In this document: piece after piece, positions 25,686 through 27,821 of the stretch
How the letters are laid out: each line of letters begins with the position of its first letter
Position numbering within the stretch: the stretch's first letter is position 1
DNA from: Deinococcus sp.
Lineage (GTDB): Bacteria > Deinococcota > Deinococci > Deinococcales > Deinococcaceae
Reading direction: 5' to 3'
Assembly: GCA_965261005.1 (NCBI GenBank)
Contig: OZ253375.1
Location: 716,057-780,056 of the forward strand
Length of the DNA: 64,000 nt
Notes under the pieces: generated by a model
The model's input: the letters and a program-made list of their open reading frames with translations, nothing else
What the model was told of the DNA's origin: nothing
Database searches by the model: none
Program-made: the position numbers and the translations under genes

Positions 25686-27821
25686 AGCCCCAGCACCGTC
25701 AACCTTCAGCTCGCCTCGCCCGAGGAGGCTTTCGCCCTGCTCGGTCCCGGCGACGTCAACTTGCGCAAAATGCGCGAACTGGCCGGCGCCAAGCTGGTGG
25801 CGCGCGGCGACACCGTCACCATCTCGGGCGTTCCCGAGCAGGTGCGCGCCGCCGAACAGCTGGTGCGCGACGCTCTCGGCGTGGTGCGCGGCGGTGGCGA
25901 GGTCAGCCCCGAGTCGCTGGAGCGCGCCGCGCGCCTGAACGGCGAGGGCCGCAGCCTGAGCGCCGAGACCAGCGGCGGCGTCAGCTTGCCGCGCGGCTTG
26001 AGGGCCAAGACGCCCGGCCAGAAGGTCTACCTGGACGCCATCGAGAGCAGCGACATCACCTTCGGCATCGGCCCGGCGGGCACCGGCAAGACCTACCTGG
26101 CGGTGGCGATGGCGGTCTCGGCGCTCAAGTCCAAAAAAGTCAAGCGCATCATCCTGACCCGTCCCGCCGTCGAGGCGGGCGAGCGGCTGGGCTTTTTGCC
26201 GGGGGACTTGCAAGCCAAGATCGACCCCTACTTGCGTCCCCTCTACGACGCCCTCTACGACATGCTGGAGCAGGAGCGCTTCGAGGCTTACCTGACCAGC
26301 GGGGTGATCGAGGTGGCGCCGCTGGCATTCATGCGTGGGCGGGCGCAGCCCCTGACCAGCCAGGTCCTCACGCCGCTGGGCTGGCGCGAGATGGGCAGCT
26401 TGGAGGTTGGCGACTTCGTGACCGGCTCGGACGGCCGGCCCACCCGCGTGCTGGGCGTGTACCCGCAGGGCGAAAAAGACAGCTACCGCGTCACCTTCAG
26501 CGACGGCGCCAGCGTGGAGTGTTGCGGCGAACACCTCTGGACGGTCTTTACGGCCTCCGACAAGCGGCGCGGCAAGCCGGGGCGGGTACTCGAAACCCGT
26601 CAGATGATCGGGAAGCTGAAGGCGGCGCACCAGTACCGCTACGAAATCCCGCTGCTGAGCGCCCCCGCCGAGCTGCCAGAAAGGCCCGTGCCGCTCGACC
26701 CCTACGCGCTGGGCTTGCTGCTGGGCGACGGCCACACGACCTGCACCACCACGCCCAGCTTCTCGACCGCCGACCCGGAACTGGTGACGGCGCTGGAGGC
26801 GGCCCTCAACCCGCCGGAAACTGAACCCGTGCTGGCCCTCACCCACAAGGGCGCCTATGACTACACCCTGCGCCATACGGCGGGCGGGCGCGGCGGGCGG
26901 CGGGTGGCGAACCCGGTCACGACGGCGCTGCGCGCGCTGGGCCTGGACGGCAAGACCTCCTCGCAGAAGTTCGTGCCGGAGCTGTACAAGCACAACGCGC
27001 CGGCCACGCGCCTGGCGGTGCTGCAAGGCTTGCTGGACACCGACGGCGGTCCCGTCACGCAGGCGGGGCGCAGCTGCCGCGTGCAGTACACGACCACCTC
27101 GGCGCAGTTGGCGGACGACGTGACCGAGCTGGTGCAGTCCCTGGGCGGCGTGGCGTACCGCCGGGTGCGGGCCGCCGAAGGGCGCACCCCTGGCCGCGCG
27201 CAGGGTCGCCCGGTAGGTTACCGTCACGACGCGCACGTGCTGGACATCCGCTTGCCGGCCCTGGTCGCGCCCTTTCGCCTGAGGCGCAAGGCCGAGCGCT
27301 ACGCGGCGCACGGGGGTGGACGGCCGATGCGCTCCATTGTCAACATCGAGCCGGTCGGCCGCGCCCCCATGCAGTGCATTCGCGTCGCCGCCGAGGACGC
27401 CCTGTACGTCACCGAACACCACGTCGTCACCCACAACACCCTTAACGATGCCTTCATCATTCTCGACGAGGCCCAAAACACCACGGGCGAGCAGATGAAG
27501 ATGTTCCTGACCCGCATGGGCTTCTCAAGCAAGGTGGTGGTGACGGGGGACGTGACCCAGATTGACCTGCCCCGGCACGTCACCTCGGGCCTGGCCGTCG
27601 CCAAAAAGGTGCTGGGCGGCATCGAGGGCATCGCCTTTCACACCTTTACCGATCAGGACGTGGTGCGCCACCCGCTGGTCGGCCGCATTATCAAGGCCTA
27701 CGAGAAGGTCGAGGACGCCGAGGAAAACCGTCGGGCGGCGCGCCGGGGCGAGCTGCTGTCCGTCAAAGAAGACGCCGGGGACGCGCCGGCGGAGAGCGGG
27801 CAGGGCGGCGAACCCGCCTGA
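25632..27821 (+). CDS. phoH: PhoH-family ATPase precursor interrupted by an intein
   Basis: [16 protein letters not shown] (Walker A), [31 protein letters not shown] | 365-aa insert | [16 protein letters not shown] (Walker B), [14 protein letters not shown]. Start uncertain: TTG 25632 preceded by AGGAG is chosen, and there is no ATG between the aroE region and the conserved N-terminus. Confidence 0.9.
26343..27437 (+). mobile_element. Intein (365 codons) with LAGLIDADG homing-endonuclease domain and class-3-like WCT signature
   Basis: Starts [14 protein letters not shown]. Block B CCGEHLW. LAGLIDADG-like LGLLLGDGH and [10 protein letters not shown]. Block [16 protein letters not shown]. Ends VVTHN followed by Thr (+1). 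The flanks reconstitute the conserved PhoH sequence MRGR-TLND. Confidence 0.85.

Follow-up and report, generated by a model that had tools for sequence, protein, structure and literature searches.

A probable class 3 intein with a LAGLIDADG homing endonuclease interrupts the PhoH ATPase gene of a Deinococcus species

The DNA analyzed here is a 64,000-nucleotide stretch of the Deinococcus sp. contig OZ253375.1 (assembly GCA_965261005.1, forward-strand positions 716,057 to 780,056), hereafter the window, and all coordinates are positions within it. Its plus strand carries a phoH precursor gene (25632–27821, with a TGA stop codon at 27819–27821) whose open reading frame, translation and Pfam matches identify a PhoH/YbeZ-type protein, with a KH domain and a P-loop ATPase, interrupted by an intein. 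The N-extein coding part (25662–26342) encodes the KH domain and the Walker A motif GPAGTGKT and ends with the residues APLAFMRGR. It is followed by an insert of 1095 nucleotides, or 365 codons (26343–27437), that runs from an Ala codon (26343–26345) to an Asn codon (27435–27437) closing the sequence EHHVVTHN, and that is delimited by its junctions, by profile matches and by a structural model. The C-extein coding part (27438–27821) begins with a Thr codon (27438–27440), designated Thr+1, and continues into Walker B. The phoH frame is open across both junctions, and the insert splits the Pfam match to the PhoH domain (PF02562, E = 1.8e-91) in two, with KH_1 matched at the N-terminus. A preliminary description of this locus, drawn from the sequence itself, had placed a 365-codon interruption of phoH at the same coordinates, and that placement is confirmed to the base, as is its Ala start. 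The motifs it listed (GEHLW, LGLLLGDGH, a second LAGLIDADG motif, PMQCIRV, and VVTHN followed by Thr) were all found where it had put them.

The boundaries of the insert were examined by searching for intein-free alleles with the conceptually spliced exteins (343 residues). This search retrieved PhoH proteins of 330–420 residues from Deinococcus yavapaiensis (86% identity), D. peraridilitoris (84%), D. radiodurans (77%), D. maricopensis and many others, and the N-extein part is 84–86% identical to the intein-free PhoH proteins of D. yavapaiensis and D. peraridilitoris. The preliminary description had stated that MRGR is directly followed by TLND in uninterrupted PhoH proteins, and this holds well, since MRGR is joined directly to T(L/I)xD in 119 of the 120 closest intein-free relatives (the commonest junction form occurs in 71 and MRGRTLNDAFVI in 34, with other forms making up the rest). 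The same count disposes of the idea that related PhoH proteins all carry a colinear, non-spliced domain at this position. Intein-free alleles with the precise MRGR-TLND junction, for which an alignment check had been proposed, are present in most Deinococcus species. The insert boundaries are exact because only a split from Ala1 to Asn365, with Thr at +1, regenerates MRGR-T(L/I)xD, and the earlier caution that the N-terminal boundary could be one or two residues off can be dropped. Thus, an in-frame insertion in a conserved host protein with colinear intein-free homologues is established at this locus.

Two PhoH proteins with odd junctions, P0204 from a metagenome (the one exception among the 120) and P0226 from Marmoricola, were considered as carriers of other inserts at the same site and rejected. 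Their junctions reflect internal tandem duplications or chimeras of PhoH, in which the duplicated segment runs from the P-loop region (P0204) or from GFLPG (P0226) to MRG. Neither is an intein; each probably arose by real duplication or as a chimera made in assembly.

The 365 residues of the insert divide into the two halves of a Hint splicing domain and an intervening endonuclease. The N-terminal half of the Hint domain (residues 1–105, 26343–26657), delimited by phmmer searches against the PDB and by Foldseek, contains block A, beginning AQPL, and block B, CCGEHLW, in which Cys61 (B:7) is encoded at 26523–26525, His64 (B:10) at 26532–26534 and Trp66 (B:12) at 26538–26540. A LAGLIDADG homing-endonuclease domain (residues 106–325, 26658–27317), supported by Pfam, phmmer and structural matches, follows. 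Its first motif, ALGLLLGDG (26706–26732, with LGLLLGDGH at residues 123–131), contains Asp129 (26727–26729), and its second (residues 227–236, 27021–27050), which includes LQGLLDTDG, contains Asp234. The C-terminal part of the Hint domain (residues 326–365, 27318–27437), assigned from the HMMER alignment and from conservation, carries block F, PMQCIRV, with Cys345 (F:4) at 27375–27377, and block G, VVTHN, with Thr363 (G:5), His364 and Asn365 at 27429–27437. All of these features lie on the plus strand.

Profile searches, PDB matches and a structural model agree on this arrangement, and for this reason we interpret the insert as an intein of two modules, in which a LAGLIDADG endonuclease interrupts a Hint splicing domain. 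The profile searches that had been recommended gave a match of LAGLIDADG_3 (PF14528) to residues 223–279 with 38.3 bits against a cut-off of 22.5 (E = 1.6e-9), so that a lack of any Hint or LAGLIDADG profile hit no longer stands in the way, and NCBIfam models of DnaB (E = 1.8e-12), GyrA and RecA matched through their intein portions. The Hint fold itself comes from PDB matches and from the model. In phmmer searches against the PDB, residues 3–89 matched the gp41-1 intein and its variant engineered to carry Trp, Cys and Thr (6riz; E = 7e-13), residues 6–68 matched the class 3 inteins MchDnaB1 (6rix, 6riy) and MsmDnaB1 (6bs8) with E about 1e-8 (weakest 7.5e-8), and residues 120–272 matched PI-SceI (E = 4.6e-6). 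There, the block B His and Trp align with His64 and Trp66 and the terminal THN with THN, and in a HMMER alignment Cys345 pairs with the block F Cys in both MchDnaB1 and the engineered gp41-1.

A confident AlphaFold model of the intein, built with 12 relatives (predicted local distance difference test score 84, predicted template-modelling score 0.87), shows the Hint fold. As a whole it best matches PI-SceI (1lwt; Foldseek E = 7.8e-17, template-modelling score 0.71), followed by the TliVMA and PhoVMA inteins and PI-PfuI, and further Foldseek matches include MsmDnaB1, MchDnaB1, gp41-1, Prp8 inteins and Hedgehog (1at0). The Hint half of the model superposes on 6bs8 and 6rix with 32–38% identity and a root mean square deviation of 1.2–2.4 Å (38% and 1.2 Å for 6bs8 itself). 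The model shows helices at residues 120–127 and 220–234, and each of the two LAGLIDADG motifs has its acidic residue (Asp129, Asp234) as expected of this endonuclease family. By sequence pattern, we take these motifs to correspond to LLGLWIGDG and LAGLIDSDG of PI-SceI.

In class 3 inteins, by definition, the first residue is not a nucleophile and co-varies with the WCT signature (Trp at B:12, Cys at F:4, Thr at G:5), and the +1 position holds Thr or Ser (Tori et al., 2010; PMC2807308). This copy, with Ala1, Trp66, Cys345, Thr363 and Thr+1, carries the complete sequence signature, and also has the block B His64, the C-terminal His364-Asn365 and the Thr+1 expected of an intein. An alignment of 106 PhoH-borne relatives gives the assignment its depth: His64, Trp66, Cys345, Thr363, His364 and Asn365 are invariant in all 106, Asp129 is conserved in 105, and Asp234 is nearly invariant in a 12-sequence alignment. 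The +1 residue, scored in the top 120 matches, is Thr in nearly all and Ser in five. The class 3 signature proposed in the preliminary description is thus complete by the published definition, and membership of the family is established at the level of these residues.

Residue 1 is Ala in 95 of the 106 relatives and Ser in the other 11. About 10% of PhoH inteins therefore begin with Ser1 while keeping the invariant WCT residues (P0008, P0016, P0028, P0037, P0063, P0067, P0079, P0093, P0095, P0112 and P0116, with further examples at loci L039, L040 and L046). Three WCT inteins with Ser or Cys at residue 1 have been reported before (PMC2807308). The Ser1 forms, which occur in nature, could reveal whether class 3 machinery can coexist with a class 1-like start.

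The intein is one of a large family. Used as a query it retrieved 1599 database relatives at E ≤ 1e-3, and the best 120 of these all lie inside PhoH proteins (E from 1e-132 to 1e-186, 60–85% identity), which excludes a chance resemblance. When genomes were scanned at one genome per species, relatives were found to be encoded in at least 572 species genomes. Carriers among the genomes listed include four other Deinococcus lineages, Trueperaceae, many Actinomycetota (among them Lentzea, Pseudonocardia, Micromonospora, Streptomyces, Mycolicibacterium and Mycobacterium), Acidobacteriota, Chloroflexota, Planctomycetota, and metagenome-assembled genomes of a Myxococcales bacterium and a Competibacter. 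The PhoH intein allele is thus established in at least six phyla. Sixty-five loci included enough extein on the flanks for scoring, and every one of them has the intein at the same site.

Comparison of intein and host divergence bears on how this distribution arose. Between the window and actinobacterial copies the intein is 64–68% identical and the PhoH exteins 54–58%, and an intein more conserved than its host protein between phyla fits horizontal spread. Against the intein-bearing Deinococcus copies the figures are 79–82% for the intein and 79–80% for the exteins. Among the matches listed, the closest inteins are those of D. multiflagellatus (85%) and D. xinjiangensis (82%), with Deinococcus copies spanning 78–85%, and no identical copy of the window's intein was found in the databases searched. 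The closest exteins belong to intein-free Deinococcus (D. yavapaiensis, 86%). These sequence comparisons indicate horizontal spread between phyla and patchy gain and loss within Deinococcus, as would be expected for a homing element.

The closest named relative, from D. multiflagellatus (P0002), is annotated as a stand-alone "LAGLIDADG family homing endonuclease" of 316 residues that starts at the Met of MRGR and stops before block F. It is either a frameshifted or decaying phoH-intein gene or a gene-calling artefact.

Modelling the splicing pathway on the MP-Be DnaB, Dra Snf2, Msm DnaB-1 and Mch DnaB-1 inteins leads to the following proposal, in which splicing, branching at Cys345 and endonuclease activity are predicted by homology to class 3 inteins already studied. 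A precursor of about 720 residues would be translated with its ATPase core split by the intein. Cys345 (F:4), activated by His64 and positioned by Trp66, would attack the bond between Arg(−1) and Ala1 to form a thioester branched intermediate, and the N-extein would then be moved to the side-chain oxygen of Thr+1. Cyclization of Asn365 would free the intein, and an O–N acyl shift would yield mature PhoH reading MRGRTLND. Additionally, the endonuclease, through Asp129 and Asp234, may cut intein-free phoH at the MRGR/TLND-coding site and so promote homing, which would explain the spread of the PhoH intein across phyla.

Overall, we consider it highly probable that the insert is a full-length class 3 intein with a LAGLIDADG endonuclease, representing an already described PhoH allele and lying between the Arg of MRGR and the Thr of TLND. 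Several observations weigh against this view or temper it. The match to the Pfam profile Hom_end_hint is marginal and below threshold (E = 0.075). His131, just after LAGLIDADG motif 1, is unique to this copy (100 of the 106 relatives have Cys there), and an insertion of six residues at 156–161 is likewise peculiar to it; these two features make the endonuclease activity of this copy less certain than its splicing. A foreign base composition of the intein was looked for and rejected, as its guanine-plus-cytosine content of 0.68–0.74 equals that of the flanking gene, and there is thus no sign of recent invasion. Ratios of nonsynonymous to synonymous divergence (dN/dS) were computed by the pairwise Nei-Gojobori method for five Deinococcus copies (the window, Deinococcus sp. 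VB343, D. antarcticus, D. xinjiangensis and a Deinococcus metagenome-assembled genome), and are approximate because dS is 0.8–1.2, near saturation: 0.11–0.18 for the whole intein, 0.05–0.13 for the N-terminal Hint part, 0.14–0.19 for the endonuclease and 0.04–0.33 for the exteins. At these values both the splicing and the endonuclease modules are clearly under purifying selection, which counts in favor of the view taken here. No experimental study of PhoH-intein splicing, nor the phrase "PhoH intein", was found in the searchable literature. Finally, the WCT signature alone is compatible in principle with a class 2 route until Cys F:4 has been mutated, as class 3 and class 2 can be separated only by that mutation (Tori and Perler, PMC5222942).

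Some of these observations would suit an intein that splices but whose LAGLIDADG domain is inactive, an immobile passenger inherited vertically, in which the endonuclease fold is kept for folding or splicing. A base composition indistinguishable from that of the host gene, a unique His131 beside motif 1 and the six-residue insertion would all agree with such a state, and the nearly equal divergence of intein and exteins within Deinococcus is compatible with long vertical residence. However, Asp129 and Asp234 are both intact in an open frame, and the dN/dS of the endonuclease is similar to that of the exteins. The presence of the allele in at least six phyla, where it is more conserved than its host, requires that the family was actively mobile at least until recently, and within Deinococcus its distribution is patchy, with the closest exteins free of it. 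An immobile passenger is consequently unlikely, though far from negligible. That the insert stays in the protein as a domain that is never spliced out, or that phoH is dead here, is scarcely credible. The truncated D. multiflagellatus entry offers an indirect hint that some copies may be broken or mis-called, but here the frame is open over both junctions with all catalytic residues intact, purifying selection acts on intein and exteins alike, and the phoH-ybeY-dgkA operon is conserved. The insert, moreover, parts MRGR from Walker B within a conserved ATPase core that nearly all close relatives possess uninterrupted.

The chemistry of splicing raises a different question, namely whether Thr+1 attacks the N-terminal junction directly, as in a class 2-like or other non-class 3 route, with Cys345 in a purely structural role. 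Ala1 is also the first residue of the class 2 KlbA inteins, the signature cannot by itself stand in for a Cys F:4 mutant, and the Ser1 relatives make a class 1-like start chemically possible in part of the family. Yet class 2 inteins lack WCT and use Cys+1 (PMC2807308), whereas here WCT is invariant and the +1 residue is Thr or Ser. Cys F:4 has been needed in every WCT intein tested, namely MP-Be DnaB, Dra Snf2, Msm DnaB-1, Mle DnaB as well as Bvi IcmO (PMC2807308; PMC5222942), and the nearest solved structures are those of class 3 inteins. Such a route is very improbable, and the class 3 pathway through Cys345 remains our preferred account.

Block B of this family has a further feature that may bear on regulation. 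Cys61 (B:7) is Cys in 103 of the 106 PhoH-intein relatives, and the adjacent Cys60 is Cys in 81. Cys at B:7 was considered as a PhoH-specific trait and rejected, being also present in the inteins of Xanthomonas phage LucasX DnaB, PhiPA3 SNF2 and a Vibrio phage (other phage copies have Asp). In Msm DnaB-1, a Cys48–Cys118 pair forms a redox trap (PMC6195587), and splicing is inhibited by zinc (PMC7360933). We hypothesize, with considerable doubt and from residue conservation, that Cys61 or Cys60 could be joined to Cys345 by a reversible disulfide, or bind zinc together with it, placing PhoH maturation under redox or metal control; such a switch would be analogous to, and structurally different from, the Msm DnaB-1 trap. 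If correct, an ATPase whose gene lies directly upstream of the RNase gene ybeY would have a stress switch of its own, acting after translation, in a genus that resists oxidation and radiation.

The start of phoH is marked by a 15-nucleotide unit present in three tandem copies (CAGGAGACCAGTTGA, CAAGAGACCGTTTGA and CAGGAGATCGCTTGA) just upstream of the gene at 25621–25680. Each copy holds a Shine-Dalgarno-like AGGAG or AAGAG and an in-frame TTG, and also reads TTGAC(A/C), similar to a −35 box. Related Deinococcus loci (L001–L003), with which the start was inferred by comparison, have a single AGGAG-N-TTG start. The translation-initiation region of phoH thus seems to be triplicated in frame, and the tandem repeat, set against the single start of the relatives, leaves the start ambiguous among the in-frame TTG codons at 25632, 25647 and 25662.

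Downstream on the plus strand are ybeY (27826–28305; endoribonuclease, Pfam YbeY E = 5.7e-24), with a candidate TTG start four nucleotides after the phoH stop codon, and dgkA (28298–28660; prokaryotic diacylglycerol kinase, Pfam DAGK_prokar E = 2.3e-30), which overlaps the end of ybeY. The phoH-ybeY-dgkA context named in the preliminary description is borne out by Pfam, which also identifies a CorC/CNNM-type gene (corC) downstream of dgkA. Looking up the exact sequences of the CorC-like and DgkA proteins gave no recorded match. Upstream of phoH lies a divergent shikimate dehydrogenase gene. A very long open reading frame on the minus strand (21584–25483, 1299 residues from its first TTG) resembles, over its C-terminal two thirds, a sensor histidine kinase with PAS-like repeats, while its Arg/Ala-rich N-terminal part, which overlaps the aroE-like gene region, is probably non-coding. 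A single tRNA gene at 49831–49902 (plus strand), unrelated to the intein, is the only Rfam match in the window at the gathering threshold.

Relatives of the intein also occur in phages, where full-length copies, 37–45% identical over all 365 residues, are found in 781 phage records within terminases, DnaB and SNF2-type helicases. Six phage relatives aligned with this intein (including H1, H5, H8, H10 and H22; L082–L086) show the A(Q/E)P(L/V) start, Trp at B:12, Cys at F:4, the terminal THN, and T, S or C at +1, as in the PhoH intein. The phage inteins sit directly after the Walker A lysine (GKGK, GTGK or GSGK, then Ala), whereas the PhoH intein follows MRGR, ahead of Walker B, and the context common to the two is limited to G-[K/R] before the intein and [T/S/C] after it. 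The comparison thus presents one intein lineage at different sites, with G-[K/R] / [T/S] as the sole common context. The one phage match annotated as PhoH (Caudovirales GX15bay, MK557849.1, coding sequence 529–3351) was considered as a phage PhoH with this intein and rejected, as it has no P-loop or PhoH motifs. This coding sequence lies just upstream of the portal gene and its product name is probably wrong; its intein is a different one of the WCT type (block B DGNHRW, block F AVCIKV, LVTHN then T) and 39% identical to the one described here.

The PhoH intein allele, its class 3 assignment and its presence in Deinococcus-Thermus are already known. The survey by Novikova et al. (2016; PMC4760082) includes PhoH (COG1702) among the proteins that host inteins in bacteria and counts it 21 times in Actinobacteria and Deinococcus-Thermus. 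The PhoH inteins of M. fortuitum and M. xenopi have been aligned with DnaB inteins as mycobacterial class 3 inteins, with the WCT residues shown (Kelley et al., 2018; PMC6195587, Figure 6a), and a PhoH intein has been reported in M. smegmatis (Woods et al., 2020; PMC7360933). The element is ordinary and not new, because it is published and present in hundreds of bacterial species, and its discovery value is small given how common it is in soil Actinomycetota, Acidobacteriota, Chloroflexota and Deinococcota. Its practical interest lies partly in annotation, intein-bearing phoH genes often being mis-called as partial PhoH or as stand-alone "LAGLIDADG endonucleases", as in D. multiflagellatus. 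Additionally, since this class 3 intein is full-length, seems to retain an intact endonuclease and has many variants in nature, the Ser1 forms among them, it would be convenient material for studies of mechanism, homing and conditional splicing.

The mycobacterial PhoH inteins share with this one the host protein, the MRGR/TLND site, the WCT residues, Ala1 and Thr+1, and differ in host lineage, this copy being in Deinococcus. The identity of site is taken from Mycolicibacterium and Mycobacterium genomes rather than from the published accessions OBK00716 and EID13626. In Mycolicibacterium sp. (L079) and a Mycobacterium metagenome-assembled genome (L052), APLAYMRGR is followed by a 359-residue intein running from AQPL to LLTHN and then by TLNDAF, and the Mycolicibacterium intein is 62.7% identical to ours over the full 359–365 residues. 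Used as a query to find the entries of M. fortuitum and M. xenopi, the Mycolicibacterium intein brought up nothing but a "PhoH family protein [Mycobacterium sp.]" and metagenome proteins without names.

Among inteins of known structure, Msm DnaB-1 and Mch DnaB-1 (6bs8, 6rix, 6riy) share with the PhoH intein the block B pattern xxxHxW, the block F Cys and the THN C-terminus. However, they are mini-inteins without an endonuclease, located in DnaB, whereas this intein is full-length and located in PhoH. Block B position 7 is Asp (DxxH) in the two DnaB-1 inteins and Cys (CxxH) here, compared with TxxH in class 1, and nothing in this intein obviously corresponds to Cys48, the redox partner in Msm DnaB-1. 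The class 3 prototypes, MP-Be DnaB of mycobacteriophage Bethlehem and D. radiodurans Snf2, share the organization of this intein, being full-length with a LAGLIDADG endonuclease (PMC2807308; see also the prototype study of Brace et al., 2010, as cited in PMC5222942). PI-SceI, the yeast VMA1 intein, follows the same two-domain plan of a Hint domain interrupted by a LAGLIDADG endonuclease, and differs in belonging to class 1 (Cys1, Cys+1), in its low identity (17%) and in having an extra DNA-recognition region.

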